A stretch of 64,000 nt of DNA, taken from Nanobdellota archaeon. Its GTDB lineage: Archaea; Nanobdellota; Nanobdellia; Pacearchaeales; GW2011-AR1. The notes under the pieces are model-generated. The model was given only the letters and a program-made list of their open reading frames with translations. It was not told the origin of the DNA and ran no database searches. Both the position numbers and the translations under genes were made by a program. The stretch spans positions 95,301 through 159,300 of the forward strand of contig JBBSXJ010000004.1 in the NCBI GenBank assembly GCA_038045825.1, read 5' to 3'. Shown here piece by piece: positions 23,910 through 57,806 of this stretch. The first letter of the stretch is position 1. Every line of letters begins with the position of its first letter.

Positions 23910-26900
23910 ATGAGGTTGAAATATAAATTATTCTTTCTTTTTCTCTTTCTTTTGTTTATTTTTCTATTTAATTTTTTTAAACATCCTCCTACTTTTTCTC
24001 CAGAATCTCTTACAATTCCAGCAGATCTCTTTGTTTTACCTTTGAATTCTTCAGCTTTAAGATTAACTTGGAATGATAATGAAAGTACTTCTATGGGTTT
24101 TATTATTGAAAAAAGATCTTCATTATCAGATCCGTTTTCAATGATCGCATATGTTCCAAATTCAAATTATGCTTTAGAAACCTTTGTAGATAGCAGTCTG
24201 CCTCCTAACTCTTCTTTTGAATATCGTGTAATGTCTATAGAGGGTAATAATTTATCTGATCCTTCAAATATTTTTAGTGCTGCTACTGGGATCAGAGACA
24301 ATAAATTGATTTTTATCCCTAATTTTGGAACTTTAGATTTTTTAAACCTCTTTACAGATTCTCAGTCTTGGCAGTATGTGAAGTCTAATATTGATGGCTT
24401 TGGTTTTTTTAATCACAATCTTAAAACAAATCCTTCTTGCCCTTTTTCGGTTTGCCGCAATGTAAATTATAGTAATCTGGTAAATGTAGATGCTTTTTCT
24501 ATTTTAAAGAATTCTGGAATTAAAGTTTCTATAGAAGTTGATGCTCTTAAATGGCATAGTTGTGTCACTCTGGATCGAACAGTTCCAGTTACTAGGCAGT
24601 TAATTCTAAATATAGAAAATGCAGGAGGAGAGGTAGACTCTTTATTTATGGATCAACCACTTAATGGAGGTCAGGAAACTTTATGCCAAAGTTCAACTGG
24701 TGCTAGAATAGTCAACTCTTGTAGTGAGTGTAGTACTGGAGAGACTTGTAGGACATGTGGATATAATATGCAGCAGTCTGCTTTTCAAACCGCTCAATAT
24801 ATTAAGGCTATAAAAAAATTTAGACCTGAAATAAAAATCGGAGATACAGAACCTTACTCTAAATTTAGTTATAATCAAATCAGAGATTGGACTTTAGCTT
24901 TGAAGGCAGAAAACGTAACTCTTGATTCTTTTAGGTCTGATGTAGGTTCTAGACAAAGTAGTGATATCGTAAATCTTCGTCAAATAAAAGACTTCTTTGT
25001 TCAGCAGAATATACCATATGGGATTATTTACTGGTCTTACGTTCCATCTACTTTCATAGATAATTCGGCAAGAGATAGAGAATTCTTTACTAGGACTTTT
25101 AATTGGGTTAATATGGTGAATAACAATAATTTAGATGGTTCAATACAGAGTTTTGAAAGTTGGGATACCAGTCCTTCTAATTCTCCTTATCCTGGACAGA
25201 CAGTACCTATAAATTTGCCTGAAGTCAGCTCCTCAATTTATAGCCATACTCGTCTAATAATAGAGAGTCTTGGTCTTTTGATAGATAATGATGCGAGATT
25301 TGTAAATCAGCAGGTTCCTCTTAATATCATCGCAGGACATACTTACCAGGTCAATTTAACTTTCTTAAATAATGGTTCTCAACCATGGGAAGAAGATAGG
25401 TTTTATTCTCTTGGATCTGTTAATCCTATAGATAATAATATTTGGGGTTTTGGAAGAGTTATGATGAATGACGAAGAAATAATTTATCCGGGGCAAGAGA
25501 GAAAATTTAGTTTTTTTGTGACTGCTCCTTTGAATACAGGAGTTTATAATTTTCAATGGCAGATGCTTCATGAGCCAGTAGAAAGATTTGGTTCTTTAAG
25601 CGATAATCTCCAAATAAATGTAATGGCTCCAACTTTACCAAACGCGCCTTCTAACTTGCTTGTTACCCCTCTTAGTAATTTTCAATTAAGGATTAATTGG
25701 CAAGACAATAGCAATAATGAAATGAGCTTTAGAATAGAGAGAAGGCAGTTACCAAATGGGAATTTTGCACCTCTTTCTACTGCTTTAAATCTTCCAATTA
25801 ATACTGTTAATTTTACAGATAATGGTTTACCTGCAGGTGCTTCTTTTGAATATAGGGTTTTTGCAGTAAATACAATAGGAAATTCTCCAAGTTCGAATAA
25901 TGCTGGAGGGACTACTTTTCAGAACATTCCTAATACTCCAACTAATTTGATCGCTTCTACTCAATCTTCATCATCTATAAAATTGGATTGGCAGGATAAT
26001 AGTAATGATGAATATAATTTTATTCTCTCTAGGAGATCTATATCTAATGGTAATCCAAATCCTTGGTTTAATATTTCTATTCCTTTTAATCTCAGGACTT
26101 ACATAAATAATAATTTAAATCCTAACGTATTATATGAATTTAGGATTTTAGCAAATAATTCAGGTGGGCAATCTTCATGGTCAAATTCTGCTTTGAATAC
26201 TACTTTTATTTGTGATAGTGGTCAAATGAGACTCTGTCCAAATCAGAATGGTGTTTGTGTTGGCGCACAAGAAACTTGCGCCCAGGGAATGTGGCTGGGC
26301 TGTACTACTTCTAATTATCAATCTCATAGTGCTAATTATCAAGTTTCAGAGACTTCTTGCAATGATGATTTAGATAATGATTGCGATGTTGAATTTGATT
26401 ATGATGGTGCTTTAGCTGTTAAGGGAGACCCTAGTTGTCCTGTTAGAGTTAGTGGAATAAATTCTCCTACTCCTGTTACTGTTTCAAGTCCATTTACTCT
26501 TACTTGTACTTCGACTGCTCCGAATGTTAGGAGTATAAATGGTTTAGTTGATAGTGGGTCTTGTAATTTTGTCAATTGGCAGGGTAGTGATGCTTTGTTT
26601 AGCTGTCAGAGCAATATTGCTGGAAGTACTTTAGCTAGATGTAATGTTAATACTGCTTATTCTTATCAGACGGGAAATAATTTGAATCAATCCATAACTG
26701 TTCAAACAGGAATTTGTTCAGCTATTACTCAGATGGGTGATTGCAATAATAATCTTAATTGTGATTGGTGTGAAGATTGTTTGGGTTCAAGTTTGCAGTT
26801 CTCAAGTGGAGGAGTTGATAGATGTGTTAATACTGGAACTTGTCCATCTGCTCCGTTGCCTAATAGCGTTTATATGTGCAGAGCTACTGGTTCTGTTACT

Positions 26901-28232
26901 TGCGGAGCTCAATGCGACGGAACAATTAACGGATGTAGCTCTTCTCAAGAATGTAACTTGAATACTTGCGGATGCGATGAACTAGATCCTTCAATAAGCA
27001 ATATTGTTGTTGATAATTCTGAATGGAGTTCTAGTAGTCTTGTAACTATTAATGGGCAATACTTTTCAATTAATCCTAAGTCCAGGCTTTTTGTGAATGG
27101 ATTTGAAATTAATTCAAATAGATTAACTGTTACAGAAAGTACTATTAGGTTTACTAAAAATTCTGAAGAGTTTTTCGGAGGACAAAATAGCTTTGTTGTT
27201 ACAAATCCTTCAGGGCTTAACTCAGTTTCTACAATTGTTGCTTTGACAACCAGCCCATTTATTACTTCAATAACTCCTAGTCTTGTTTTGAATGATGAGC
27301 TTAATACTATTTCACTTTTTGGAAGCGGGTTTGATCCTCTTGCACAGGTTTATACTAATGTTGCGGGTTCATTATATAATTTAGGATTGCAGCTTCCTTA
27401 CTCTAATTCAGGAACATTGGCTTTTGTTCTTCCCCCAACATTCCCATTTGCAGGAGATGTTTCAATTTATATTGTTGGAGGAGATGGTACTCAATCTGCA
27501 GTTCAGAATCTTAGAATAAATCATAGGTTTAATTATGCATTAATACTTGCAAATCCCCAGGCATCTGTTAATTCTGGAGATACGATAAGTGATATTATTC
27601 AAGTTGGAAGTGAGTTTTATATGACTCAGGAAGATGTTGCTTTGACTGTTACTGCACCTGTTGGCGTTACTGCGACTATAAATGCAACGTCTTGCACTCC
27701 TATTTATGTTTCTGCTCTTGGATATTCTACTTGTGAAGTTAGTTATAGTGTGGAAACTACAGGATTACCCCCTGGGCAGTATATAGTTATGTTCACTGCT
27801 GATTCTGTTATTAGCAATGTTACTAAACAGATAAATTTAGTTGTTAATATTAATAGTCCTTTTCAGCCTACTGGCTCTAGTTCTGGATCTGGAAGCAGTA
27901 GTGGAACTGGGGGGCCTAGGCCTGTTTTAGTTGTAAAATACCAATGTAATGATGGGCTTGATAATGATAATGATGGTTTTAGTGACTTCGAAGAAGATAT
28001 GGGTTGTTCAACTGAAAATGATAACAGTGAGTTTGATCCTACGGAATTAGTTGAATCTGATATTCCTGTAAATGAAGAAGATCCTTTGAATTTGAAAGGA
28101 GAGGAAAAAGATGTTGAAGTAAGATTGGTGTTCTTACTTACTGTTTCTATCTTGATATTTGCTATATCTATTGTTGTTTTGATGATAATTCGGTCAATTA
28201 TTTTTAGAAGAATTAATATGAAAAGTTTTTAA
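23910..28232 (+). CDS. giant cell-surface protein A (FN3 modules, Cys-rich DNDCD repeats, C-terminal TM anchor). The ORF track starts at a TTG at 23859; the ATG at 23910 gives a MRLKYKLFFLF signal anchor
   Basis: N-terminal hydrophobic anchor; three FN3-like modules (…LRINWQDNSNNEMSFRIERRQLPNG…); C-x-DG-x-DNDCD motifs; C-term CNDGLDNDNDG + acidic linker + TM + basic tail. Confidence 0.7.
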   Translation: MRLKYKLFFLFLFLLFIFLFNFFKHPPTFSPESLTIPADLFVLPLNSSALRLTWNDNESTSMGFIIEKRSSLSDPFSMIAYVPNSNYALETFVDSSLPPNSSFEYRVMSIEGNNLSDPSNIFSAATGIRDNKLIFIPNFGTLDFLNLFTDSQSWQYVKSNIDGFGFFNHNLKTNPSCPFSVCRNVNYSNLVNVDAFSILKNSGIKVSIEVDALKWHSCVTLDRTVPVTRQLILNIENAGGEVDSLFMDQPLNGGQETLCQSSTGARIVNSCSECSTGETCRTCGYNMQQSAFQTAQYIKAIKKFRPEIKIGDTEPYSKFSYNQIRDWTLALKAENVTLDSFRSDVGSRQSSDIVNLRQIKDFFVQQNIPYGIIYWSYVPSTFIDNSARDREFFTRTFNWVNMVNNNNLDGSIQSFESWDTSPSNSPYPGQTVPINLPEVSSSIYSHTRLIIESLGLLIDNDARFVNQQVPLNIIAGHTYQVNLTFLNNGSQPWEEDRFYSLGSVNPIDNNIWGFGRVMMNDEEIIYPGQERKFSFFVTAPLNTGVYNFQWQMLHEPVERFGSLSDNLQINVMAPTLPNAPSNLLVTPLSNFQLRINWQDNSNNEMSFRIERRQLPNGNFAPLSTALNLPINTVNFTDNGLPAGASFEYRVFAVNTIGNSPSSNNAGGTTFQNIPNTPTNLIASTQSSSSIKLDWQDNSNDEYNFILSRRSISNGNPNPWFNISIPFNLRTYINNNLNPNVLYEFRILANNSGGQSSWSNSALNTTFICDSGQMRLCPNQNGVCVGAQETCAQGMWLGCTTSNYQSHSANYQVSETSCNDDLDNDCDVEFDYDGALAVKGDPSCPVRVSGINSPTPVTVSSPFTLTCTSTAPNVRSINGLVDSGSCNFVNWQGSDALFSCQSNIAGSTLARCNVNTAYSYQTGNNLNQSITVQTGICSAITQMGDCNNNLNCDWCEDCLGSSLQFSSGGVDRCVNTGTCPSAPLPNSVYMCRATGSVTCGAQCDGTINGCSSSQECNLNTCGCDELDPSISNIVVDNSEWSSSSLVTINGQYFSINPKSRLFVNGFEINSNRLTVTESTIRFTKNSEEFFGGQNSFVVTNPSGLNSVSTIVALTTSPFITSITPSLVLNDELNTISLFGSGFDPLAQVYTNVAGSLYNLGLQLPYSNSGTLAFVLPPTFPFAGDVSIYIVGGDGTQSAVQNLRINHRFNYALILANPQASVNSGDTISDIIQVGSEFYMTQEDVALTVTAPVGVTATINATSCTPIYVSALGYSTCEVSYSVETTGLPPGQYIVMFTADSVISNVTKQINLVVNINSPFQPTGSSSGSGSSSGTGGPRPVLVVKYQCNDGLDNDNDGFSDFEEDMGCSTENDNSEFDPTELVESDIPVNEEDPLNLKGEEKDVEVRLVFLLTVSILIFAISIVVLMIIRSIIFRRINMKSF

Positions 28233-28989: not shown

Positions 28990-29027
28990 ATGGATACTCT
29001 TAAAAAGGAAGTTTTTGACTTTTTATA

Positions 29028-30144: not shown

Positions 30145-33100
30145 ATGAGGCAGAGTGTAGACTTTTTTATATTTGTTTTTTTTGTTGCTTTTTGTTCTTT
30201 TGTTTTATTTTTTGGGTCGAACAAAACTCATAGCTTCTTTGATGTTGATGGGACGATCACAGGCAAAGTTATTGAAGAAGATTTTCTTCTTAATATCTCA
30301 GATCTTAGAACTTTCCCTAAAATATATATTGGCTCATCGTGTAAAATTGAAAAAATTTCATCTAGTGTTAATTCTGTTCGGATTGGAGATGTTGTTCATT
30401 TTGAGGTTTTAGGGAAAAATTGCGATGGTTATAGAGTAGATTTTGAGATTTTTGAAAAAGATATTTTATTTGATGATCATATAATTGATCTTCAAAGTGG
30501 TTTTGAAAATGGTGTTGCTTCATTTGACTGGAAAGTTACTGATGAAGTTTTAATTTTATCTGATGAGTCTATAGAAGACTCCAGACTTGAAATTTATTCC
30601 ATTGTCCATCTTAGCTCTTCTCCTATTTATTCTAATAATTTGGTTTCTGAGAAAATTTATCTTTTTTATGATGGCTATATACCTTTATCTCCATCTGGCG
30701 GGTCTGGGCCCGAAAGTGTTCAATGTTCTTCAATTACTAGACATGGTATTACATGGACTTTTTCACAACCTAGGGAATGTGGACAATTTGTTAATGGAGA
30801 TTGGTGGGTTCTTGGTCCTGTGACTATTACTTCAGTTTCACCTGGACAAATATCGGGTAGGCATGGCTCATGGTTGAATCCACTTGCTAATCTTCCCAGT
30901 CCAGGTGGATACAGACACCCGTTTGATGATCGTGCTGCACAGTATGATCCTTCATTGAGGCCAACATTTCCTTTGACAGTTACACAACCAGGATCTTTAC
31001 TTTCTACTGCTAGTCATACAACCCCTAATAATTGTCCTTCTTGCTTTTTGCCTGATCCCCCTACAGCTTGCTCTGATCTTCTCTATGATACTAGCGAGGC
31101 TACGGTGCTTGATACTTGCAGTAAAACCACTTTACGTACTGCTGCAGTATTAACTATTCTTACTCAAGTACCTCCGGCAGATAGTTTTAGGCCAACTTAC
31201 TTTAGCACAGATAAAACTATTCGTTATAATAAAAATCAATTAGATTATTCTTTTTTTGGTAATTTGACTCCAACTCCATTAACACCTCCTTTGATTGAAG
31301 TTGAAAGATCTTTTGAAAGAGTAAATGTTCAAGTTATTCACTGGCCTACAGAATCGATTCAACCGTCTGAAAATGCAGTTGGATATGGCAGAGATTTTGC
31401 TGATGAAGTTAGCATTGCAGCTCTGTCTTTGAATTTGAATTATACTCAAGCACAAAAAGAAACTTTAGCGATACGTTTAGTTCAATTGGGTATTGATTTT
31501 AATGGTGCATTAGAATTGGGTATGGAATGGAATCCAAATGGAGGACATGGTAATGGGCGTTTTTTCCCTATTCTTCTTGCAGGACTTATGTTAAATGATT
31601 CAAGACTTTTGAATGCTACAACTTATCATCCTAGGTTTTTTAGTGAAAAAGGTCAAACATTTGCTGTAACTAATTATCCTCCAAATACTCCCTCTTCAGT
31701 TATTCCTCAATGTTCAGCTGGAGGTGTTAACTGCGGTCATGGAGGATATACTTCTGCAGATATAGGACTTCCTGACTTTGGGTTTTCTCACTGGACAGGT
31801 CCTATTGTTGATGCGAAAGATTGGTTTGGTGATTCTTATCGTCGTTGTTGTACTGCCAATGGATGGAATGGGTATATTTTAGCTTCGCATATAATGGGAG
31901 TTACTGATAGCTGGAATTATGATGTTCTTTTCCCTTATACTGATCGTTATATGGAAAATCCTTTGACTGCAGGATGGAGAAGCTGGCATCCTTGGCTTGA
32001 AGAAATGTGGGATACTTATCGTGCTAATTATAATCGAGAGTGGAATCCTAATGATCTTTGCACGGAAGGAACTAGGAGAAGTTGTGAAGAACAGAGAGGT
32101 GTTTGTTTTCAATCTCAAGAGACTTGCAAGTTTAAGAATTGGTGGGGATGCAGTGCGCCTACTTATTCTCCTACTACTTATATGACTCACAACTCAAATT
32201 ATCAGGTAACTGAAAATAGTTGTGATGGACTGGATAATGATTGTGATGGTCAAACTGATGAAGGGTGTGTACCTGGAAGTCCGCCTAACCCGCCTAGTGA
32301 TTTGAACGTTACTCCGGTAAGTTCTATACAATTAAGGCTGAATTGGAAAGACAATAGCAACAACGAAGATAAATTTGTTGTTCAAAGAAGGCAGTTACCT
32401 AATGGACTCTTTGCTAATTTATCTACTGCTTCTAACCTGCCTGCTAATACAGTTACATTTACTGATAATGGTTTGCCTGCAAGTACATCATTTGAATATA
32501 GAGTCTTGGCTGAGAATAGCATCGGAGTTTCAACTTGGTCTAATTCTGCGAGCAATACTACTAATCAAAGTGCTCCTAACACTCCTAGCGGATTAACTGT
32601 TATTCCAATTAACAGTTCTAGTTTGAGAATTAATTGGAATGATGTTGTAAATGAAAATGGATATACTTTACAATTTAAACTAGCGTCTGCTTCTATTTTT
32701 GTAAATGTTTTTGGAGCTGGAAGTTTGTCAGCTAACACAGTTAGCTTTACTCATAATGGACTCTTAAATAATACTTCTTACAATTACCAGATTCTTGCAT
32801 TTAATAGTGGAGGTAATTCTTCATTTTCTCAAATAGCTACTGGCACTACAAATCAAAGTGCTCCACTTGACTTTATAATTTCTAGAAACCCTATATCTGG
32901 ATCTGTACAAAGAGGGAATTCTGTTTCTACTACAGTTACTGCGACTTATACTTCTGGAGTTTCATCTGCTGTGGCATTTACTGCTACTAACTTATCTGCT
33001 GGAATTTCTGCATTGTTTAGTCCAATAAGCTGCACTCCTTCCAGCGGAAGTCCTTGCTCTTCTACTCTTACACTATCTGCTTCTTCTAGCGCTGCTTTGG

Positions 33101-34278
33101 TTTCTAATCAAAGTGTTATAATTACTGGGACAAGCGGAGCAGTTGTTAGAAATGTGAATTATAACTTGACTGTTTTGAGTGTACCTGTTTGCACTAATGG
33201 ACAGGTTAGAAATTGTCAAGAACAGAGAGGAGTTTGTCTGAATTCATTTGAGACCTGTACTCTAAATAACTGGCCTGGATGCAATTACAATTCTATTCCA
33301 GGATATGCTTCTGTTGAAACTGGAGTTGAATTGTGTCGTGATGGACTTGATAATGATTGCGATGGAACACAAGATATTGGCGGAGATTCTGGATGCCCTA
33401 TACCTCGTTACTCTAGATTTAATAATAATATTACAACTAATCTTTCTAATGTAAGTGATCTAACTAGAGTTGTTAACTTCTCTGTTGGAATTCCAAGTAT
33501 TGGTAGAATACAATATTTGAGCCAAGAGGTTTCTTTATGGAGACTTGTTAATGGAGTTTACCAGGCACTAGATCTTGATAATGCTATTGCTATTGCAAGA
33601 AATATAGTTGGAGTATATAGTGAAAGTTATAGTGAATTGAATCAAACTGCTAGAGTTACTTTCTATAACCTGAGTTATACTGATGCTCCTGTTCCTACTA
33701 TTCAAACATCTAATGGATTTAGTATATGCTCTTCATCTAGATGTTTGCCTTTGTCTTATTCCAATGGTGAATTTGTAATGACTACTGTTGGATTCTCTAA
33801 CTATAGTACTCAAGTTTCAACTTGTGGAGATTCATATTGTCATGTGTTAACTGAGACTTGTTCTTCTTGTAGTTCTGATTGTGGATCGTGTGGGACTGGT
33901 TCTAGTTCTGGAGGATCATCTGGTGGTAGTTCTGGAGGAAGCGGTGGACCTCCTAGCAGATCTAGTACTTTAGTTACTCAATGCAATGATGGAGTTGATA
34001 ATGATGGTGATGACTTAGTTGACTATCCTGCTGATTTAGGCTGCTTGAATGCTAATGATAATATAGAACTTGATGAAATTATATTGGAATCTGAAGACTT
34101 CTCTGAAGAACCAGAGACCTTAACTCTTAGACCCAGAGATATAGGAATAGGATTTGTATTTTGGGTTGTTTTAATAGTTTTAATTTTGGGGATAATAGTT
34201 GTCGGAATAATAATAGCTAGTCATGTTCATAAGAGAAAGAAGTTTAGTGAATATATTAAGACAATAAATAAAAATTAG
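30145..34278 (+). CDS. giant cell-surface protein B, paralog of A and C. The ORF track starts at 30100; the internal ATG at 30145 gives a MRQSVDFFIFVFFVAF signal anchor
   Basis: TM anchor; ~450-aa N-terminal globular region; Cys-rich repeats (CEEQRGVCFQSQETCKFKNWWGC…CDGLDNDCDGQTDEGC); three FN3 modules; shared C-terminal module STLVTQCNDGVDNDGDDLVDYPADLGC + TM + KRKKF tail. Confidence 0.7.
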   Translation: MRQSVDFFIFVFFVAFCSFVLFFGSNKTHSFFDVDGTITGKVIEEDFLLNISDLRTFPKIYIGSSCKIEKISSSVNSVRIGDVVHFEVLGKNCDGYRVDFEIFEKDILFDDHIIDLQSGFENGVASFDWKVTDEVLILSDESIEDSRLEIYSIVHLSSSPIYSNNLVSEKIYLFYDGYIPLSPSGGSGPESVQCSSITRHGITWTFSQPRECGQFVNGDWWVLGPVTITSVSPGQISGRHGSWLNPLANLPSPGGYRHPFDDRAAQYDPSLRPTFPLTVTQPGSLLSTASHTTPNNCPSCFLPDPPTACSDLLYDTSEATVLDTCSKTTLRTAAVLTILTQVPPADSFRPTYFSTDKTIRYNKNQLDYSFFGNLTPTPLTPPLIEVERSFERVNVQVIHWPTESIQPSENAVGYGRDFADEVSIAALSLNLNYTQAQKETLAIRLVQLGIDFNGALELGMEWNPNGGHGNGRFFPILLAGLMLNDSRLLNATTYHPRFFSEKGQTFAVTNYPPNTPSSVIPQCSAGGVNCGHGGYTSADIGLPDFGFSHWTGPIVDAKDWFGDSYRRCCTANGWNGYILASHIMGVTDSWNYDVLFPYTDRYMENPLTAGWRSWHPWLEEMWDTYRANYNREWNPNDLCTEGTRRSCEEQRGVCFQSQETCKFKNWWGCSAPTYSPTTYMTHNSNYQVTENSCDGLDNDCDGQTDEGCVPGSPPNPPSDLNVTPVSSIQLRLNWKDNSNNEDKFVVQRRQLPNGLFANLSTASNLPANTVTFTDNGLPASTSFEYRVLAENSIGVSTWSNSASNTTNQSAPNTPSGLTVIPINSSSLRINWNDVVNENGYTLQFKLASASIFVNVFGAGSLSANTVSFTHNGLLNNTSYNYQILAFNSGGNSSFSQIATGTTNQSAPLDFIISRNPISGSVQRGNSVSTTVTATYTSGVSSAVAFTATNLSAGISALFSPISCTPSSGSPCSSTLTLSASSSAALVSNQSVIITGTSGAVVRNVNYNLTVLSVPVCTNGQVRNCQEQRGVCLNSFETCTLNNWPGCNYNSIPGYASVETGVELCRDGLDNDCDGTQDIGGDSGCPIPRYSRFNNNITTNLSNVSDLTRVVNFSVGIPSIGRIQYLSQEVSLWRLVNGVYQALDLDNAIAIARNIVGVYSESYSELNQTARVTFYNLSYTDAPVPTIQTSNGFSICSSSRCLPLSYSNGEFVMTTVGFSNYSTQVSTCGDSYCHVLTETCSSCSSDCGSCGTGSSSGGSSGGSSGGSGGPPSRSSTLVTQCNDGVDNDGDDLVDYPADLGCLNANDNIELDEIILESEDFSEEPETLTLRPRDIGIGFVFWVVLIVLILGIIVVGIIIASHVHKRKKFSEYIKTINKN

Positions 34279-36330: not shown

Positions 36331-37308
36331 TTATAGAAGCCCATTTGGGAAAGGGGTAAATTTTATTTGATCTCTTTGAATATAGTATTTCATGTCTTTT
36401 ATTTTACCTTTAAACTTTTCCTGGATTCTTTTTAAAAAACTGTCCAATTCATCTATTGATTTGTATATGCAGTTAAATACTATTGAAAGTGAGTTTGCAC
36501 TTGTAAATGCATAAGTTATATTTTCATTATTCTTGATTAGATCTTCTACTGCATCAAAACCTAGTTTTGAGATGTTTTGGAAAGTTATTTTCCCAATGAA
36601 GGGCATATAGCCTAGTTTCTTATAATTTAGCATAGGGTGGTATTTTCTTATAATTAGGTTATTTTCTAGTGATTTCATTCTATATCTTACTACATCCCAT
36701 GTACTATCTACTCTTTCTGCTAATTCTATTAAGGAGATATTAGAATCTTTAGTTAATTCATAGATTATCTTTTTATCTAATTGGTCTAATTTAATATTTT
36801 TTGTATCTGGTTTTGAGAAGCTTTTGCCTTTTTCCAGGTTATTTTTGTTAAGGTCTTTAATCAAATGATTTATTCTAACCATTTTTGCAAAAATATCTAT
36901 TTCATAGAAATTTAGTCTTTCTCCAAAATATTCTCTTATTTGAAGTATTATTTTCTCCATGCTGAAGAAACCTTCTGCTATAAACTCTGCAAGGATATCA
37001 TATTCTCCTGAAATGGTTACAGCCCACATACAGAAGGGGTGATTTTTGAAATAGTCTGAGATCTCTGCATTTTTTGATAGGTCTTCATTGAACTTGAAAA
37101 GTACTGTAAATGTGTTAAAACCTAATTTTTCAAGATTAACATTACAAGTGAATGCTGAGATAATTTCCTTTTCTAAGAATTTTTTTATTTTATTATTGAC
37201 TGTATCCTTACTTACTGCTAATTTCTTTGCTAGTTGGCTATTCGACATTCTACTATCTAGATAGAGTAATTCTAGTAAATTCTCATCTTTCTTGTCTAAA
37301 ATCTCCAT
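36331..37308 (-). CDS. transcriptional regulator with two tandem Lrp/AsnC-like HTH modules
   Basis: two repeats of HTH + RAM-like halves (…NSQLAKKLAVSKDTVNNKIKK… and …LIELAERVDSTWDVVRYRMKSLE…). Confidence 0.45.
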   Translation of the reverse strand: MEILDKKDENLLELLYLDSRMSNSQLAKKLAVSKDTVNNKIKKFLEKEIISAFTCNVNLEKLGFNTFTVLFKFNEDLSKNAEISDYFKNHPFCMWAVTISGEYDILAEFIAEGFFSMEKIILQIREYFGERLNFYEIDIFAKMVRINHLIKDLNKNNLEKGKSFSKPDTKNIKLDQLDKKIIYELTKDSNISLIELAERVDSTWDVVRYRMKSLENNLIIRKYHPMLNYKKLGYMPFIGKITFQNISKLGFDAVEDLIKNNENITYAFTSANSLSIVFNCIYKSIDELDSFLKRIQEKFKGKIKDMKYYIQRDQIKFTPFPNGLL

Positions 37309-42705: not shown

Positions 42706-42749
42706 TGAATCCTAACAGCCGTGTGCTCTACCTGCTGAGCTACAGAGTC
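42654..42749 (-). tRNA. intron-containing tRNA, probably tRNA-Asn (anticodon GTT) with a 23-nt intron at canonical 37/38
   Basis: acceptor GACTCTG/CAGAGTC, D-arm GCTC-AGCAGGTA-GAGC, anticodon stem CACGG/CCGTG separated by 30 nt (CTGTTA|23 nt|A), T-arm CGAGG-TTCGAGT-CCTCG, discriminator G as in tRNA-Asn. Confidence 0.7.
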
Positions 42750-50026: not shown

Positions 50027-53000
50027 TTATAATTTCTGAATGAAACCTGCCTTTGGCTTGAAAATGTCTCCTGATTTTGATAATTGATTTATTGCATCTT
50101 CTATTTCTTCTTTTGTTAGTTTTTCTCCCAATTCTTTTTCTAGTTCTGCTGTGGGGATTAGTTTTCCTAGACTTTGTTCTAACTTAGATATTGTTTCTCT
50201 TACTATTATGATTTTATTTCTTTTTGATGCAGGAATTCCAGTTGTTATTCTATCTACATCAAATGTTTGAGTTTCTTCATCAAATCCTACTTGCATCATC
50301 GAATATTTTAGTAATTTTATTGCTCTTCTTGCGTCTTCAACACCCACATAACTACTCAATCTTATTTTTGCACATGCTTCTGAAAGTCTTACTATTGCCT
50401 CTAATTGTCTAGCAGTTATTGGAATTGCTTTTATTTCTGAATTTCCAGATAATGTTCTATTTCTTATTGAAATATAGAATTCTTTTATTTCTTCTGCCGC
50501 TTCGTCTGTTAATTTTGGTTTTATTTTTCTTGCAAATGCGACATACTTTCTTAATAGTTTTGGATCTATTACATCTCTTTCAACTGTTTGTTTGTGTTCT
50601 TCTAAGACATGAGATGCAATTGCTTCATCCTGGACTCTGTTTGGTATGTCTCTTAATACAAAGATAACATCAAATCTACTTAATAATGCTGGAGAGATAT
50701 TGATTTGCTGAGGAATAGGAATTACTGGATCAAATCTTCCTAATTTTGGGTTGCCAGCTGCTAGAACTGAAGTTTCTGATCTTAGTGTTGCTTGGATATT
50801 TGCTTTGGAGATTGTAACAGTATTATGAAGAATTGCTGCTTGGGAAACAAACGCATGGTTTGGTTCAATAGTTACATCGTAAACCCATTCTTCATCTTCA
50901 TTGTCCATTACTTCAACACCCCTTACTTTTTCCCACCCAATATCTCCCGTTAATATTTCTAAGAACTCCTTGTTTTTTTCATTTTTAACTTGGAGCAGTA
51001 AATTTTTCAAGAAATCTGCTGAAAATGAAAACTTGTCATTTCTAACTTGATGATCATAAATTATGTCATATTGCTTATATTTGCCTACTTGAGTTATATT
51101 CTCTTCTTTAATTATTGCGATTATTGATTCGTTAAAATCTAAAGGAAGCCTGTTTTTTACATATCTCCTTATCTTTTTTTCTTTAAGATAATTATTTATT
51201 ATTTGATTCTTTCTCTCTGTTACAAATCCAATATTTTCAGAGAATCTTTGAATATTTTGATAATCTGTTATTCCTACCTTGTAAAATCCTTTATGCTCTG
51301 TTACTGAACTTCTTATTTTAAACCTAAGCAGCAAGTCTTGTATTTGCTCTGCTAGTCTTTTACTTTTTGTTGAATATCCTATCCTTATTGTTCTCTTTTT
51401 TATTGAAGCATAACCATCTCCTTCAAATAAACAGGAGATCATTGCTGCAATATTTTCTTTTTCACCTTTCATCGCAAATTTTGGTATTTCTTTCTCTCCT
51501 GCATATCTAATCATTTCATGCATATTCTTTAAAATAAAATTACTTAGCTCTCTAGAAATATAACGGCAGAAATACATTGGGCCTGTCGGATCTATTCTTA
51601 TCTGTTTATATGGTTTAAGATTAAATGTCTTTTTCATACATTCTTCAAAATCTTTTATGACAATTTCATCTTTATTCGCAAAACTTATCCTGATTAATTT
51701 ACCTCTATTTCTTTCCTTTGATCCCTCTGAAACAATATATCCTACTATCTTGAATAGCTCTCTGCAATTAGATGTAGGAATAGTTGGATGTTGTTTTATT
51801 CTTTGGTCCAAGCTTACCCCCATCTTTTCAAATACTTGTTTCTTTCCACTTATTGGCATACTTAATGGAATTGGGATTGGATCTTCTAGTTGGATATTAT
51901 CTGCTCTTTTTGTTATTATTTTTCCATCTTTTACAGTGAATACGGGATGTTCCGGGGTAACTATTATTTCTCTCCCATGAGATAATTTTATTTTAATAAA
52001 TTTTTTAAAAGCTTTATGCTTGCTTATGCGAGTAGCTTTTATTGGAGAGATATTTTTCCAATCTGTTGTAAGTAGTTCTAAATCATTAACATGAAGTATT
52101 AAACAGTCTTTTCCTTGAATTATTTTTTCTTTATTTTTTTCTAGAAGACTCTCAACTAATTCTCCTATTTTTACTTCTTGACCATCTGCTAGACTAATTA
52201 TTGTATCTTTGTGATAACATTGTTGCTCCATGCTTTCATGCATCGTTGATCTATCATGTTCGTCCATTTTTTCTATTTCATCTATACAAACTGTTCCTTT
52301 ATTTGATAGAACCATTGCTCCTGCTTCTAGAGACCATCCTTTCAAAAATTCATCTTTTACAACTGCTGCTGTAAGGCCTGCTCCTGTTGCTGCTTTTCCA
52401 GAAACATAACGTCCTTTAGGAGCTACACGAGATACAAATTTTAGAGTTACCGATTTTGCTACTCCAGGATCTCCTACTAAAAGAACGTGAATGTCTCCTC
52501 TTGTGTTCCCACCATCTGAACGTTTTTTCTTTACACCTGAAAATAACTGAAGAAGTATAGCTTCTTTTACTTCTTTGAAACCATATACGCTTGGAGCTAT
52601 ACTGCTTGCAAGTCTTTCAAATGCTTTTGGATCTGTAGCTATTTTTTTTATTTGTTCTTCGTCTTTTTCATTTACTTCCAGATCATCAAATGTTTCTTCT
52701 AAAGGTATTGCATTATTTGCTTCAATTGCTAAATCGAATCTTGTAGAAATAGAACCTTGCTGAAGAGGTACAGGAACTTCCTTTAGAACACCTATTATTC
52801 TTACTTTACTTCCAGGAGTCGTTCTATCTTCCATTCTAGGATCTACCAAATCTTCTTTCAGAAAGACATTCATTCTTCTTGGCTGCTCTCCTCCTTCTAA
52901 TGAATCTGGAGATTCTTCAATTACAAGACGTTGAGCATCAACCAGTTCTTTTGAAAGTAGTTTGAATAATCCCTTTCTTCCGCATGAACATCTACTTGGT

Positions 53001-53434
53001 TCTCTGAATTTTCTGTCTATTTGAAGAACTGATAAAATTGCTCCACATGTTGGACATTCAAATCTGGCATTAACAACTTGAGGTCTTACATCTGACGCTT
53101 GACGAACTATTCCTTCAATTGTTATGAATTGATCTAAATGTTTTGCCCTAATTTCTTTTATTTTTATTTTGACTGAATCTGGGAGAGATGTGAATCTTAT
53201 TCTTGGAGGTTTTGGAAGGTATGCTTGTTCTTCCAGGCAAAGTTCTAATAAGGCAATTATTTCTTCTGGAGTCTCTAAAAGTTTTTCTGATAACATTGGA
53301 GAAAATTTAGATAAGTGATAAAAGTCTAAAGGAACAACTTGGTCATTTTTTACAGATCTTATTATCTCCTTCTTGCTGTTTTGGAAGAATTCTTTTGCTT
53401 CTTTTTCAAGTTCCTGCTTTTTTCCTAGTTCCAT
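50027..53434 (-). CDS. mcm: MCM replicative helicase, interrupted in-frame by an intein
   Basis: zinc finger CPTC…CSC, Walker A GDPGVAKS, Walker B CIDEIEKM, HESMEQQ|intein|TVTISKANIQ, arginine finger SRFDVIF; extein 669 aa. Confidence 0.9.
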   Translation of the reverse strand: MELGKKQELEKEAKEFFQNSKKEIIRSVKNDQVVPLDFYHLSKFSPMLSEKLLETPEEIIALLELCLEEQAYLPKPPRIRFTSLPDSVKIKIKEIRAKHLDQFITIEGIVRQASDVRPQVVNARFECPTCGAILSVLQIDRKFREPSRCSCGRKGLFKLLSKELVDAQRLVIEESPDSLEGGEQPRRMNVFLKEDLVDPRMEDRTTPGSKVRIIGVLKEVPVPLQQGSISTRFDLAIEANNAIPLEETFDDLEVNEKDEEQIKKIATDPKAFERLASSIAPSVYGFKEVKEAILLQLFSGVKKKRSDGGNTRGDIHVLLVGDPGVAKSVTLKFVSRVAPKGRYVSGKAATGAGLTAAVVKDEFLKGWSLEAGAMVLSNKGTVCIDEIEKMDEHDRSTMHESMEQQCYHKDTIISLADGQEVKIGELVESLLEKNKEKIIQGKDCLILHVNDLELLTTDWKNISPIKATRISKHKAFKKFIKIKLSHGREIIVTPEHPVFTVKDGKIITKRADNIQLEDPIPIPLSMPISGKKQVFEKMGVSLDQRIKQHPTIPTSNCRELFKIVGYIVSEGSKERNRGKLIRISFANKDEIVIKDFEECMKKTFNLKPYKQIRIDPTGPMYFCRYISRELSNFILKNMHEMIRYAGEKEIPKFAMKGEKENIAAMISCLFEGDGYASIKKRTIRIGYSTKSKRLAEQIQDLLLRFKIRSSVTEHKGFYKVGITDYQNIQRFSENIGFVTERKNQIINNYLKEKKIRRYVKNRLPLDFNESIIAIIKEENITQVGKYKQYDIIYDHQVRNDKFSFSADFLKNLLLQVKNEKNKEFLEILTGDIGWEKVRGVEVMDNEDEEWVYDVTIEPNHAFVSQAAILHNTVTISKANIQATLRSETSVLAAGNPKLGRFDPVIPIPQQINISPALLSRFDVIFVLRDIPNRVQDEAIASHVLEEHKQTVERDVIDPKLLRKYVAFARKIKPKLTDEAAEEIKEFYISIRNRTLSGNSEIKAIPITARQLEAIVRLSEACAKIRLSSYVGVEDARRAIKLLKYSMMQVGFDEETQTFDVDRITTGIPASKRNKIIIVRETISKLEQSLGKLIPTAELEKELGEKLTKEEIEDAINQLSKSGDIFKPKAGFIQKL
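50822..52219 (-). mobile_element. MCM intein (466 aa) with LAGLIDADG homing-endonuclease domain
   Basis: starts with Cys right after MEQQ (CYHKDTIISL), ends …AAILHN followed by Thr; LAGLIDADG-like blocks IVGYIVSEGS and ISCLFEGDGYAS. Confidence 0.8.
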
Positions 53435-53564
53435 TGGAAGTAGGGGTTGTGTTTGCTTTAAATTGTTTATTGCTATCTTAGCATATGTTTGTTTATTGTT
53501 AATACTTCAGGGTTTTGCTATATGGTTCTTCATTTACAGTTGTTGTTCTTGCGATCATCTCTAG

Positions 53565-53687: not shown

Positions 53688-53738
53688 TTGTTGAATTCTA
53701 GAACAAACTTTATAAATGACTTTTGTATACTTATTGTA

Positions 53739-56700
53739 ATGAAAAGAGATGGTTTTTTATTTGTAGTTATTGCTTTTGCCATTCTCTCTGCTTTTGTTTT
53801 TTATTTTGATTACTCTAAAGAATGTGGTTCCGTTGTTTGTATAGCAACATTTGTTTCCACTGGAGAGACTTCGGCTTCCGAATATAAGTTAGATGATTCT
53901 GTTTTATCTAAAATTATTTATCCTTTCGTTAATCCTGTTGAAGGTGTTCTTTTACAGCCTGCTGATGATCCAACTGAACCACCTTTGCCACCTAGTGATT
54001 TAAATGCTACACCTTTAAGTTTTTCCTCTATGAGATTGGATTGGAAAGATAATAGTAATACTGCAAATAATGGTGAGGAAGGATTTATTTTGCAGTATAA
54101 ATTATCTTCTGCTCCTGCATCTGCTTGGGCGGATGCTCCTGGTGCTAATGGTTTGCCTCCAAACACAGAATCATTTATACATAATAATCTCATGCCAAGC
54201 ACTTCTTATGATTATAGAGTGCTTGCTTATAATATAATTGATTCTTCTCCTTGGTCAAATACTGCTACTGGAATTACTCTATCTGATGCGCCTATTATTA
54301 ATTCATTTAGTCCTAATCCTGTTTATAATCATGTTTCAACTAATGTTTCAATACTAGGAGATAATCTTCCAGTTAATTTTGCTATTTTGTTTAAACCTCA
54401 AGGACAAGCTAGTTATGATCCTTATTGTTCTTTTGCTACTGCTGGCTGTTCTAGAATTAGCTCTAATGAAATTAGATTTCCTATACAGAGAAATGCTATC
54501 GCAGATGTTTATGATATTAAAGTTGTTAATTTAGATAATTCTCGAGAATCTCAACCTCAGCAGCTTACTATTAGAAATGCACCTGTTCCAATAATTAGTA
54601 CATTAACTCCTGGAACTGTAAGACATAATATTGCAAGGACGATTACAATTAATGGATCTAATTTGATGCCAGAGTATGCTATTTTTGCAAGAGATACACT
54701 TACTCAAACGACTCTGAGTATTTGTAATTATCTTACTGGAAGTAATTATAATTGTAATTGGGTTAATAGCAATACATTCACTTTTGTGATTCCTCAAGGA
54801 CAGGATACAGGGTCTTTTGAGTATCAATATGCTAATGTAATAGATGCTAATACTGGTTTCTTTCAGTATTCAGTTAATTGGTTGCCTTTGACTATAGAGC
54901 CTACGACTTGTCTTGATGGTGTCGATACTACTCCTTGTAGTAACCAACAAGGTGTTTGTCAAGGTTCTGTTGCTAGATGTGTTGATGGAGAGTTTGAAGT
55001 TTGCAATTCTGCAACTTATTCTACTCATAGTCTAAATTATGCTTCTGTTGAAACTGGCTCTGTTTTATGTGCTGATGGTAGCGATAATGATTGTGACGAG
55101 CTTAATATTGCTACTGGTGGAAGAGATTATGTTGGAAGTGGAAATGGTGCTATTAAAGGAGATACTGGCTGTCCTATTCAAATTACAAATATAAATGCAC
55201 CTTCTAGTGTTAATACAGGCACTAATTTTAATTTAGTTTGCACATCAAATCCTGGAAGTGTTTCTGTTGCATTAGATGGATTTATTGACTCTTCTTCTTG
55301 CGCTTTATCTAGTTCTAGTGGAAATACCGCTACTTTTAGCTGTGTTAGTTCTTCTACTCCTGGGATAACTCAAATTGCAAAGTGCGACGTTGATTCTTCT
55401 ATATCTTATAGGAGTGGAAATGCTTTGACATCTAATGTACAAATAACTGCTAGTTCTTGTTCTGGATATAGTGAAAGTACAAGTTGCAATGCTGCACCTG
55501 GTAATATTTGTCAATGGTGTCTTGGATGTGCTGGTACCAGCGGGACTAAATCTAGCGGGGGTCCAGATAGATGTGTAGATGCAGGTACTTGTTCTGGATC
55601 TTATCAATGTAGAATTAATCAATGTGGTGCTACGTGTGAGGGAACTTCTAGTGGTTGTTCTCAATCACAGAGTTGTAATGCTAACTCTTGCGGTTGTGTT
55701 GATCAGAGCCCGGTTATAAATAATATAAATAATCTTCCTAGTCCTACATTTTCATGGGGATCTAACAATGCTTTAACTGTTAATGGACAATATTTTGCTT
55801 CTAATGCTGAATTAAGAATTGATGGAGTTCCTTGTTCTACACGATGTCAGAATTTAGTTATTACTGGAAATAGTATCTCTTTTAATATTGGGGCTGGAGC
55901 ATTTGGAGTTGGAACTCATACTATTGTTGTTAGAAACCCAACTCCTTCTCCTGGATTGAATTCTAGCTCTTTAACTTTCACTTTAAGATCTAATCCTGTA
56001 ATAAACTCTGTTTCCCCTAATATTATTGTTAATAATGTTAATAATGTGATTAATATAACTGGAAATGATTTTGATCCTTTAGCAATTGTTACTGCTAATG
56101 GAATAGCTGTAACTCCTTTGATAGTTGTTGTTAATTCTAATTTAATACAATTACCTTTACCTCCTGGAATATTGGGGACTTTAGTAGGGGACTTTGCAAT
56201 TAGAGTTATAAGTGGAGATGGTGTTGTTTCTTCTCCTCCGCAAAATCTTAGAGTTAATTACCCATTTAGTTATCTTTCTACATTGAATCCTTCTATTGTT
56301 CCTGTTGTTTCTGGATCTTCATTTAATGTCCTGGTTGAATTAGAAAGTCTTGTTGAAATGACTCAAGAAGAAGTTATTATTTCTGCTCAGTCTATTCCTG
56401 AAGCTTCTGTTAGCTTTGTTGGATTAGATAGATGCACTCCTAGTGCTGGAAACCCTAATCCTACTTGTAATGTGACTCTTGATGTAGATGTTGGAAATGT
56501 AGTTGAACAAGATTATAATATTACTATTACTGCAACATCTCAAACTACCAACATTGTCCGTCGGGTTACGTTAATTTTGCAAGGGGAGATAGGAACTCTT
56601 GCTGAATGTAGAAATGGTATTCAAGATACTCATGAAACTTGTGTAGATGGCGGAGGTCCTATCTGCGCACCTGCTGGTATTTTATGTGGCTTTGGAGAGT

Positions 56701-57806
56701 CTTGTTTATTAAATTCTGATTGTGTTGTTGCTGGCTCTGCATATACTGCTGGATTGTGTTATAGCAATAATATTTGTAGTATAGATAATGATGGAGATAG
56801 TGTTCCTGATGGACCAATTCCCAATAATTTAGATTTATGTCTTAATACTCCTATATCTACAATTGTTAGTACTTTGAATGGGTGTCCTGTTCCTTCTGTT
56901 TCTAGATTTGTATCTCCGTTAACTACTAATTTCTTTGCAGTTCCTGATTTGAGCAATGTTCAAGATATGTCTCTGGCGGTTTCTGGGGCAGGAAGAATAC
57001 AATATTTAGGGCAAAGAGTTTCTGTTTTGAGAAATGCTACAGGGGTTCATCAGGCTTTGAATTTAGATAATGCCGTAAATATAGAAAGCAATTTGATTGG
57101 GGTTGATGCTTTGGGTAATCCTGAACTTGATCAAACTGCTGTTTTGACATTTGAAGGTTTATCTTACTCTGAAGCGCCTACTCCTGTTGTTTCAAGTTCT
57201 ACAGGATATATTGTTTGTCCTTCTACTTTATGCCAGAGTTTGTCTTATGTTAATGGAGTATTCAGCGTGAATGTTGCTGGATTTAGTAATTATAGTACTC
57301 AAAATTCTACCTGTGGAGATACTTATTGTAGTTTGAGTGAGACTTGTTCTTCTTGTGGTTCTGATTGCGGAGTATGTACTTCTTCTAGTGCAAGTGGATC
57401 TGGTAGTGGTAGTTCTGGAGGATCAGGAGGATCTAGTGGGGGACCTCCTAGAAGATCTAGTACTTTAGTTACTCAATGCAATGATAGAATTGATAATGAT
57501 GGAGATGGAAGGATAGATTATCCTGCAGATACTGGATGTACAAATGTTCAAGATAATCTGGAATTGTTTGTAGAACCTCTTATTGATACAGACGAAGAAG
57601 AAACAGGAGAGGAGATTTCTCTTGAAAGAATATTTGAAGTAAGGGTTGTATTTTGGATAGTTCTTCTTGCTTTGATTGGAGGAATAGTTGTTGTATCTAC
57701 AGTAATACTTAGAGATTTGATGGGAAGAAAGAAATTTAATCAGCTTTCTAAAGCAATTAATCCAACCCAATCTTCAACGCGGAGTTCTCCTCCTGTAGGC
57801 ATATAA
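53739..57806 (+). CDS. giant cell-surface protein C, paralog of A and B. The ORF track starts at a TTG at 53688; the ATG at 53739 gives a MKRDGFLFVVIAFAIL signal anchor
   Basis: N-terminal anchor, FN3 module, Cys-rich modules homologous to protein A (25-30 Cys), C-terminal region homologous to protein B (…STLVTQCNDRIDNDGDGRIDYPADTGC…), acidic linker, TM, basic tail. Confidence 0.7.
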   Translation: MKRDGFLFVVIAFAILSAFVFYFDYSKECGSVVCIATFVSTGETSASEYKLDDSVLSKIIYPFVNPVEGVLLQPADDPTEPPLPPSDLNATPLSFSSMRLDWKDNSNTANNGEEGFILQYKLSSAPASAWADAPGANGLPPNTESFIHNNLMPSTSYDYRVLAYNIIDSSPWSNTATGITLSDAPIINSFSPNPVYNHVSTNVSILGDNLPVNFAILFKPQGQASYDPYCSFATAGCSRISSNEIRFPIQRNAIADVYDIKVVNLDNSRESQPQQLTIRNAPVPIISTLTPGTVRHNIARTITINGSNLMPEYAIFARDTLTQTTLSICNYLTGSNYNCNWVNSNTFTFVIPQGQDTGSFEYQYANVIDANTGFFQYSVNWLPLTIEPTTCLDGVDTTPCSNQQGVCQGSVARCVDGEFEVCNSATYSTHSLNYASVETGSVLCADGSDNDCDELNIATGGRDYVGSGNGAIKGDTGCPIQITNINAPSSVNTGTNFNLVCTSNPGSVSVALDGFIDSSSCALSSSSGNTATFSCVSSSTPGITQIAKCDVDSSISYRSGNALTSNVQITASSCSGYSESTSCNAAPGNICQWCLGCAGTSGTKSSGGPDRCVDAGTCSGSYQCRINQCGATCEGTSSGCSQSQSCNANSCGCVDQSPVINNINNLPSPTFSWGSNNALTVNGQYFASNAELRIDGVPCSTRCQNLVITGNSISFNIGAGAFGVGTHTIVVRNPTPSPGLNSSSLTFTLRSNPVINSVSPNIIVNNVNNVINITGNDFDPLAIVTANGIAVTPLIVVVNSNLIQLPLPPGILGTLVGDFAIRVISGDGVVSSPPQNLRVNYPFSYLSTLNPSIVPVVSGSSFNVLVELESLVEMTQEEVIISAQSIPEASVSFVGLDRCTPSAGNPNPTCNVTLDVDVGNVVEQDYNITITATSQTTNIVRRVTLILQGEIGTLAECRNGIQDTHETCVDGGGPICAPAGILCGFGESCLLNSDCVVAGSAYTAGLCYSNNICSIDNDGDSVPDGPIPNNLDLCLNTPISTIVSTLNGCPVPSVSRFVSPLTTNFFAVPDLSNVQDMSLAVSGAGRIQYLGQRVSVLRNATGVHQALNLDNAVNIESNLIGVDALGNPELDQTAVLTFEGLSYSEAPTPVVSSSTGYIVCPSTLCQSLSYVNGVFSVNVAGFSNYSTQNSTCGDTYCSLSETCSSCGSDCGVCTSSSASGSGSGSSGGSGGSSGGPPRRSSTLVTQCNDRIDNDGDGRIDYPADTGCTNVQDNLELFVEPLIDTDEEETGEEISLERIFEVRVVFWIVLLALIGGIVVVSTVILRDLMGRKKFNQLSKAINPTQSSTRSSPPVGI

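Follow-up and report, generated by a model that had tools for sequence, protein, structure and literature searches.

The window analyzed here is a 64,000-nucleotide stretch of DNA from a Nanobdellota archaeon (GenBank assembly GCA_038045825.1, contig JBBSXJ010000004.1, positions 95,301 to 159,300), and its three largest plus-strand open reading frames (ORFs) encode giant mosaic proteins that are predicted to be extracellular and anchored in the membrane. These genes, which we call A (23910..28232, 1440 amino acids [aa]), B (30145..34278, 1377 aa), and C (53739..57806, 1355 aa), were defined from the ORFs and their translations, and all of the features described for them below lie on the same (+) strand. 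Each open frame runs a few codons further upstream to a TTG codon; the ATG starts used here are those of a first-pass annotation of the same DNA, which had described a family of three giant paralogous genes at these positions. Our analysis bears out that description and leads to a refined view, in which two of the three proteins (A and B) are enzyme-like at the tip and two (B and C) carry an autopeptidase-type domain at the base.

Paralogy and composition of A, B, and C

All-against-all BLASTP comparison detected homology for every pair and confirmed that A, B, and C are paralogs, with similarity far beyond chance. A and C share 33% identity over 584 aa (A 756-1312, C 380-947; E 8e-93), B and C share 34% identity over 660 aa in their C-terminal halves (E 7e-94), and A and B share 51% identity over 189 aa that form a pair of FN3 modules (E 2e-48). 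The shared block is a different one in each comparison, in agreement with the mosaic build that had been proposed for the family. At the DNA level, the three genes are 68 to 72% identical. Because this identity is at most 72%, the mosaic reflects old shuffling, and we ruled out recent gene conversion among the paralogs on the same ground.

The amino acid composition of the three proteins differs from that of the other ~50 ORFs of the window, with Ser plus Thr at 19 to 21% versus ~11%, charged residues at 12 to 15% versus 25 to 30%, and Cys at 2.6 to 4.1% versus ~1%, which fits the composition of exported, disulfide-bonded extracellular proteins. Each protein starts with a short charged stretch followed by a hydrophobic segment of 17 to 19 aa, which was located in A at 23928..23978 by sequence reading and Kyte-Doolittle windows above 1.8 (a signal peptide or signal anchor) and by sequence scan in B (30163..30219) and C (53751..53807). 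Each also ends in a single C-terminal transmembrane (TM) helix and a basic tail, so the earlier description of these products as membrane-anchored, Cys-rich mosaic proteins of the cell surface, with an N-terminal hydrophobic segment, stands, their extracellular location being a prediction.

A glycoside hydrolase-like head in A

The head of A (24300..25319, aa 131-470) is a glycoside hydrolase (GH)-like domain with a (beta/alpha)8 TIM-barrel fold, and the nearest structural neighbors of its predicted model are glycosidases. A word-indexed search found five homologs only, and an exhaustive search with a profile brought up 251 cluster representatives at E<=1e-30, mostly covering a domain of ~330 aa. 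Some members of this family carry type IX secretion system tails, beta-helix domains, or Ig domains, and the barrel has no Pfam model. The A head itself had no match among Pfam, NCBIfam, or PDB sequences, and a search of PDB sequences with the family profile returned nothing useful. When set beside the (beta/alpha)8 hydrolases of GH20, GH53, and other families of clan GH-A, the head is not a member of a CAZy or Pfam family as judged by sequence.

In an alignment of 129 family members, the near-invariant polar residues are D248, E249, E314, D344, H342, and E209 (A numbering), and A retains four of them (D248, E314, D344, and E209). Position 249 is Gln in A, where 112 of the 129 members have Glu in an MDEP motif at the end of strand 4, and position 342 is Arg, where 105 members have His. 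The nanoarchaeal ortholog of A likewise reads MDQP and FRSD at these sites. In GH20, GH18, and clan GH-A, the acid/base Glu is located on strand 4. By analogy with these families, the Gln that replaces the consensus strand-4 Glu suggests that the barrel is perhaps a glycan binder and not a hydrolase, and we consider the head of A to be probably more a glycan binder than an enzyme. It can be compared with catalytically dead relatives of glycosidases, such as the GH18 chitinase-like lectins, with the proviso that the catalytic residues of the A-head family are only putative.

A bacterial-type head in B

The region of B that lies between the hydrophobic segment and the head (30220..30699, aa 26-185) has no Pfam match. 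Residues 64 to 174 are 26% identical to a 222-aa ORF on a related Nanoarchaeota contig (L001, 146-814), and on the basis of this likeness the region also exists as a small stand-alone protein. The head that follows (30700..32040, aa 186 to about 632) consists of a beta-sandwich and then a helical domain. The first-pass annotation had named the N-terminal region of B, ~450 aa long, as a target for structure prediction; when this was run, the AlphaFold2 model of the head showed the two-domain fold with confidence (pLDDT 85, pTM 0.88). No Pfam domain was found across the head region in this family, and no solved structural neighbor was found in the PDB.

Searches with the B head returned 1276 homologs at E<=1e-3, with ~40% identity. 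With few exceptions they are secreted proteins of bacteria, mainly Planctomycetota, that stand alone and are ~570 aa long. Members of the family can have BACON, PKD, He_PIG, Big_9, or InlB-B-repeat domains in addition. B retains all of the invariant residues of the family (39/39). Since the top matches are all bacterial, the sequence comparison suggests that the head was acquired horizontally.

We examined the neighborhoods of B-head genes in two Planctomycetes and one Anaerolineae (L140 5474-9806, L141 5482-9782, and L142 8001-9689). In both Planctomycetes the gene adjoins genes for GT2 glycosyltransferases, a Bac_transf sugar transferase, and a polysaccharide deacetylase, as well as a conserved pair of genes of no known function (~545 aa and 221 aa), and in the Anaerolineae it lies between genes for GH130, GH44, a Pel9A-like lyase, and GH123. 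Guilt by association with these polysaccharide gene clusters indicates that the B head may be carbohydrate-active, possibly as a new family, and we regard it as probably a glycan-cleaving or glycan-binding module.

Heads of this kind could also belong to cell-tethered catabolic enzymes that scavenge environmental polysaccharides as nutrients and take no part in contact between cells. The GH-like barrel of A, the carbohydrate-active enzyme clusters around B-head homologs in Anaerolineae, and the fact that the bacterial family members are secreted stand-alone proteins are all in keeping with such a role, but A lacks the consensus Glu and His of its family, C lacks any enzyme-like domain, and about two-thirds of each protein is an adhesion-type stalk. 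We therefore regard scavenging alone as an unlikely function for these proteins.

A Nup98-like domain at the base of B and C

Directly before a Cys knot near the membrane, B and C contain a domain of ~140 aa (B 33394..33810, aa 1084-1222; C 56883..57299, about aa 1049-1187) that resembles the autopeptidase domain of Nup98 and Nup145 (S59; ZU5 superfamily sensu Zhang et al. 2012). It was recognized in B by Pfam, by profile search of the PDB, and by hhalign, and in C by its 53% identity to the B domain. B matched PF04096 (Nup98-96 autopeptidase S59) with an E value of 2e-4 and 22 bits, below the cutoff of 28.4 bits, and when five family members were searched, two matched this model (best E 2.1e-5) and none scored above the gathering cutoff. 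A profile built from the five sequences and compared with all PDB sequences placed Nup98 autoproteolytic domains on top (best E 0.02), with an hhalign probability of 94.6% against the human Nup98 autoproteolytic domain. We then deepened the family by a scan of metagenomes, which yielded 58 loci, many from groundwater, with about 16 spanning the full domain. With the resulting 16-sequence profile, the top 15 PDB matches were all Nup98, Nup145N, or Nup116 (best E 0.0015), and hhalign against Nup98 gave 95.6% (E 1.2e-8, 102 columns). For controls, we used a reversed Nup98 and 40 shuffled sequences, none of which exceeded a probability of 1%, and seven other modules of A, B, and C, none of which exceeded 13%. 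Pfam ZU5 (PF00791) did not match the B or C domain; Aravind and co-workers have placed the Nup96/98 domain within the ZU5 superfamily (PMC3482391). At the level of sequence profiles, there is good support for a common ancestry of the Nup98/Nup145 autoproteolytic domain and the domain that B and C carry next to the membrane.

The C-terminal motif of the family, x-F-S/T-x-Y/F, aligns on the HF|SKY scissile site of Nup98, and in both B (33790..33804) and C (57279..57293) it reads G-F-S-N-Y. Among the 16 sequences the Phe is invariant and the following residue is Ser in 15 and Thr in 1. Of the HFS triad, the His is kept in only 3 of the 16 relatives; B and C have Gly instead. Nup98 orthologs without HFS are not cleaved (PMC4483485). 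The His of GAIN domains serves as general base, yet does not suffice for cleavage (PMC13062082). The domain is possibly an autopeptidase with F|S as its cut site, or else a structural relative only, and from these residues we consider the cleavage competence of B and C to be doubtful.

Several comparisons help to place this domain. Like Nup98, Nup145N, and Nup116 (MEROPS S59, PF04096), it shows profile homology over ~110 residues, has F-S-x-Y on the HF|SKY site, and keeps a Ser or Thr nucleophile in all 16 sequences. Unlike them, it scores below the Pfam cutoff, has Gly for the His of HFS, is predicted to be extracellular, juxtamembrane, and archaeal instead of part of a nuclear pore, and is followed by a Cys knot and not by Nup96. 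In its position just outside the single TM anchor of a large adhesion-type ectodomain, it also resembles SEA, GAIN, and bacterial SEAL domains, which undergo cis-autoproteolysis at x|S/T, with the fragments held together non-covalently. A counterpart of this behavior in B and C is possible by analogy only, as SEA, GAIN, and SEAL belong to a different fold family.

Large bacterial surface proteins that combine adhesion and enzymatic domains are known to contain autopeptidases of the ZU5 superfamily, which are typical of bacterial polymorphic toxins (PMC3482391). B and C are like these proteins in having an autopeptidase-type domain within a very large protein that contains adhesion modules and enzymatic domains. 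Together with the large, mosaic, and variable nature of the three genes, this likeness raises the prospect that they encode polymorphic toxins or contact-dependent effectors, in which the ZU5-like domain would free a toxic C-terminal module. In B and C, however, the domain is C-terminal and membrane-proximal, not N-terminal, and a TM anchor and short basic tail follow it in place of a toxin domain. Pfam searches found no RHS or filamentous-haemagglutinin repeats, and in the window no adjacent gene is immunity-like, the neighbors being housekeeping genes. With neither a toxin domain nor an immunity gene, we ruled out this explanation and assign it hardly any probability.

The C-terminal anchoring cassette

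All three proteins share a C-terminal order of Gly/Ser linker, CNDGxDNDxD...GC unit, acidic stretch, TM helix, and basic tail of 13 to 31 aa. The linkers, found by sequence scan, lie at 27873..27914 in A, 33898..33957 in B, and 57381..57443 in C. They are followed by a single acidic Cys repeat, which matched NF033662 below its cutoff in A (27945..28007, CNDGLDNDNDG...GC; E 6e-4) and B (33982..34044, CNDGVDNDGDDLVDYPADLGC; E 4e-5) and was located in C (57477..57539) by NCBIfam and sequence scan. The TM helices are at 28125..28190 in A (aa 1406-1427, then a 13-aa basic tail), 34141..34221 in B (aa 1333-1359, then the tail HVHKRKKFSEYIKTINKN), and 57645..57710 in C (aa 1303-1324, then a 31-aa basic tail). 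In B and C, a Cys knot separates the Nup98-like domain from the linker. The knot of B (33823..33891) reads CGDxxC...ETCSSCxxDCGxC and is invariant in 16 relatives, and that of C (57312..57377) was placed by alignment of relatives and sequence scan. A is without both the Nup98-like domain and the knot, and its last Ig-like module leads directly into the linker. The strongly conserved C-terminal module that had been written as STLVTQCND...YPAD.GC for the whole family fits B and C as worded, but A is more divergent there.

The B/C-type arrangement recurs in metagenomic relatives whose open frames range from 730 to more than 2000 aa, as a cassette of Nup98-like domain, knot, Gly-rich linker, acidic stretch, TM helix, and basic tail. 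Its knot has the form CGDxxC...E[TS]CSxCxxDCGxC with invariant Cys, and the acidic repeat or other small modules are optional after the linker. The TM helix of the cassette often starts with ..[IV]FW[IV][IV]L.. and the tail often reads K[RK]KKFxx[LY]; the combination of ..[IV]FW[IV][IV]L..G.. and K[RK]KKF[SNQ]x[YL] is kept at 34141..34275 and 57645..57803 of the window and in L084 and L086-L088. This conservation of helix and tail hints at a specific intramembrane or cytoplasmic partner.

The first-pass annotation had also raised PGF-CTERM/archaeosortase signals, and these we did not find. No PGF-CTERM or PEF-CTERM model matched the C-terminal 70 to 83 aa at E<=10, no PGF or PEF motif precedes the TM helix, and no other sorting-signal model of NCBIfam matched the C termini of A, B, and C.

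The acidic repeat, CNDGxDNDGDxxxDYPADxGC, is present in one copy per protein and scores 19 to 23 bits against NF033662 (acidic double-disulfide repeat), covering profile positions 4 to 28 of 32. The cutoff of this model, 41 bits for the whole protein, implies tandem repeats and is not reached by A, B, or C. The repeat occurs in long tandem arrays in secreted proteins of Myxococcota, Patescibacteria (candidate phyla radiation [CPR]), DPANN archaea, and others; A, B, and C differ from these NF033662 proteins in having a single copy, below the curated cutoff, just before the membrane anchor. In two Archaeoglobaceae metagenome-assembled genomes (MAGs) (L007 5302-6198; L048 2247-3095), one copy of an acidic CNDGIDNDGDGLIDYPNDPGC repeat stands directly before a PEF-CTERM-like signal (..PEFP, TM helix, and RKR or RRR), which is another mode of anchoring for the acidic repeat. 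In addition, a 1477-aa open frame in the Nanoarchaeota MAG H43-bin078_1 (L052 5761-10191) carries a single acidic repeat close to the N terminus and ends in a Gly-rich linker, TM helix, and basic tail, with no other detectable likeness to A, B, or C. Giant proteins with this C-terminal anchoring seem to be common in the Nanoarchaeota group.

Modules of the stalk

The remainder of each protein is built of beta-sandwich and Cys-rich modules. FN3-like modules, which had been read from the sequence, were recovered by Pfam (PF00041, gathering cutoff 25 bits) in all three proteins, at 72.1 bits in A, 64.9 bits in B, and 29.3 bits in C. IPT/TIG domains (PF01833, cutoff 20.9 bits) were above cutoff in C (42.1 bits, four stretches) and in a segment of A (25.6 bits); the Pfam search did not match this family in B. 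When full proteins were searched against PDB sequences, FN3 arrays were the only matches.

In A, FN3 module 1 (24018..24299, approximately aa 37-130; Pfam fn3), which aligns with FN3 modules of B and C, precedes the head. The head is followed by an NBR1/FW-type Ig-like domain (25329..25595, aa 474-562; PF16158 E 6e-4, below cutoff) that is 50% identical to tandem copies in P0122 and P0123, which carry PF16158, and then by FN3 modules 2 and 3 (25638..26189, aa 577-760; 72 bits), which are the pair that is 51% identical to that of B. Next come a four-Cys unit with a MopE-like CxDxDNDCD module (26211..26444, from motif scans) and a block colinear with C (26445..27845; BLAST E 8e-93), which comprises a Cys-containing Ig-like module, a Cys-rich module, two IPT/TIG domains (the 25.6-bit segment), and a final Ig-like module.

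The stalk of B contains a four-Cys unit with MopE-like module 1 (32059..32268; Pfam and motif scans), two FN3 modules (32284..32844, aa 714-900; 64.9 bits), an Ig-like module (32857..33174, approximately aa 905-1010) that lies inside the B-C alignment and has a weak He_PIG match, and a four-Cys unit with MopE-like module 2 (33190..33396; PF11617 E 8e-5, below cutoff, and motif scan). C starts with an FN3 module (53988..54269, aa 84-177; 29.3 bits) and two IPT/TIG domains (54294..54893, aa 186-385; E 2.7e-11), continues with a four-Cys unit and MopE-like module (54909..55193; motif scans) and with the block colinear with A (55194..56579; BLAST) of Ig-like, Cys-rich, two IPT/TIG, and Ig-like modules, in which the best TIG stretch is aa 658-748, and ends in a Cys-rich region containing DNDGDSVPD (56601..56858), which was found by sequence reading and has no family match in the Pfam search. 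The whole C protein also matched the NCBIfam model CoaZ_rpt_PGGG (E 1e-17), with its best stretch, aa 667-748, in the second TIG pair.

The Cys-rich modules had been described as having two separate motifs, of the DNDCD type and of the C...W...C type. Both are present, and they form one composite module, a four-Cys unit (C-x..G-x-C-x6-C-x4-W-x-C) followed by C-x-DG-x-DNDCD, which occurs in four copies (A 768-826, B 639-701, B 1016-1073, and C 391-453). The model closest to it is PF11617 (MopE-like metal-binding motif, cutoff 27 bits); the CxDGxDNDCDG motif matches the core of this model, and the scores are below the curated cutoff (B 21.4 bits for the whole protein and 23.2 bits for the segment). 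The proposed resemblance to the Myxococcus-type Cys-rich repeat did not hold up, as TIGR02232 gave no NCBIfam match at E<=0.1 for the whole proteins or at E<=10 for the Cys-rich segments.

Ig-like arrays with a C-terminal TM anchor could form the lattice of a structural envelope or its stalk, with A, B, and C as surface-layer (S-layer) or S-layer-anchoring subunits. Archaeal S-layer proteins are large, rich in Ig-like domains, often C-terminally anchored, and very divergent, and the Ser/Thr-rich, low-charge composition of A, B, and C would suit such a role. No DPANN S-layer protein has yet been experimentally determined (10.1101/2023.10.27.564410). This explanation has to contend with the presence of three divergent paralogs with different heads, with the enzyme-type heads being common to secreted bacterial proteins, and with the numerous disulfide modules and the long, flexible Gly/Ser linker, features ill-suited to a rigid lattice; Pfam and NCBIfam searches also found no homology to named S-layer families. 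We consider an S-layer function to be quite improbable.

Proposed function of A, B, and C

Starting from the architecture, the paralogy, the folds of both heads, and the homology of the juxtamembrane domain, we infer the topology, glycan specificity, catalytic state, any cleavage, and a role in host contact from fold, conservation, and context. The function that we favor, and hold to be rather likely, is that of glycan-directed adhesins or enzymes on the surface of a DPANN-type archaeon, with A, B, and C each anchored by a C-terminal TM helix. The proteins would be exported by means of the N-terminal hydrophobic signal, with the Gly/Ser linker, the acidic Cys-bridged unit, and the acidic stretch just outside the membrane and the basic tail in the cytoplasm. 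The ectodomain would be a long stalk of beta-sandwich modules (FN3, IPT/TIG, and NBR1-type Ig), stiffened by the disulfide-rich modules, which would present a membrane-distal head that is glycan-directed in A and B; C would have adhesion-type modules only. In B and C, the Nup98/ZU5-type domain would stand directly before the anchor, perhaps cut at F|S. In this way the proteins would attach to glycans of a partner cell or a matrix and might also trim them, and host attachment is plausible.

B and C have relatives among giant archaeal surface proteins in groundwater and sediment metagenomes, and together these make up a wider family. A bolder and less likely extension of the proposal is that the Nup98-type domain of B and C is functional; the ectodomain would then be cleaved at F|S and would stay attached, non-covalently, to a stub of Cys knot, linker, and TM helix.

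Several observations weigh against the proposed function. N-glycosylation sequons are clearly enriched in B only, and the N-terminal segments are long and without an obvious cleavage site, so that the proteins could be anchored at both ends. The model of the A head is of moderate confidence (pLDDT 70), the catalytic role of the Glu that A has lost is an analogy and not a demonstration, and, by sequence, no CAZy family could be assigned to the A head or the B head. Finally, the three genes are dispersed among housekeeping genes, a context that gives no functional hint.

Earlier work has put forward surface proteins of DPANN archaea, with folds resembling Ig domains, lectins, and lyases, as candidates for recognition of the host (10.1101/2023.10.27.564410). 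Like the giant surface proteins of DPANN archaea and CPR bacteria (e.g., of Nanobdella aerobiophila), A, B, and C bear a signal, are Ser/Thr-rich, and combine beta-sandwich arrays with carbohydrate-type domains in a small, symbiont-type genome with a proposed role in host recognition; the likeness is one of architecture. The heads and the Nup98-like anchoring cassette are absent from the published descriptions of DPANN and CPR surface proteins that we found. Giant adhesin-like proteins are thus an already known theme in DPANN archaea, and what is new is the cassette and both heads, which are without a curated family.

Genomic setting and relatives

The neighbors of A, B, and C in the window are archaeal housekeeping genes, including those for an amidase, deoxyhypusine synthase, FtsZ, aRF1, a class I aminoacyl-tRNA synthetase, and MCM. 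The window has a GC content of ~32%. Among homologs of A, the nearest one is 67% identical, shares its N-terminal architecture, and comes from a MAG labeled "Nanoarchaeota archaeon" (GCA_038045705.1). On the basis of best hits, housekeeping context, and GC content, it is reasonable to regard the source organism as DPANN-like, as had been suggested from the AT-rich DNA. The A ortholog in GCA_038045705.1 sits after GrpE-DnaK-DnaJ and shows no synteny with the window, which fits turnover of these genes in this one comparison. The family may be evolving by domain exchange, as had been proposed, possibly at a rapid pace. In a tblastx comparison with contig L001, which gave mostly acidic-repeat matches, only the A ortholog and the small ORF resembling the N-terminal region of B were in common with the window. 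When species-representative contigs were scanned with a profile of the C-terminal alignment, no close full-length relative was found, and the scan was swamped by the short acidic Cys repeat.

We also noted other features of the window. The gene for the MCM replicative helicase (50027..53434, minus strand) is split by an intein with a LAGLIDADG homing endonuclease (Pfam scores of 282 bits for MCM, 86 bits for Intein_splicing, and 73 bits for LAGLIDADG_3). A 96-nucleotide tRNA at 42654..42749 on the minus strand (Rfam 58.5 bits), for which ARAGORN gives a four-base anticodon, ttag, is probably an archaeal tRNA with an intron and overlaps the ORF at 41611..42705 at the 3' end of the latter. A 325-aa regulator with two AsnC/Lrp-type helix-turn-helix domains (HTH_24, two stretches) is encoded at 36331..37308 on the minus strand and adjoins FtsZ.

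Implications

How DPANN archaea recognize and hold other cells is largely unexplained, and the candidates are mostly unannotated giant proteins, three of which are now split into defined parts. The head of A looks like an enzyme turned binder, the B-head family could itself be a new carbohydrate-active family, and a conserved membrane-anchoring cassette is found across many giant metagenomic proteins. If the juxtamembrane domain of B and C does cleave, then adhesion receptors that are cleaved and tethered non-covalently would exist in archaea as a counterpart of SEA/GAIN-type receptors, which would allow force- or contact-dependent shedding or signaling during episymbiosis. The domain would also be an archaeal, extracellular relative of the Nup98 autopeptidase and, as such, a data point for the proposed origin of that domain from prokaryotic surface proteins.

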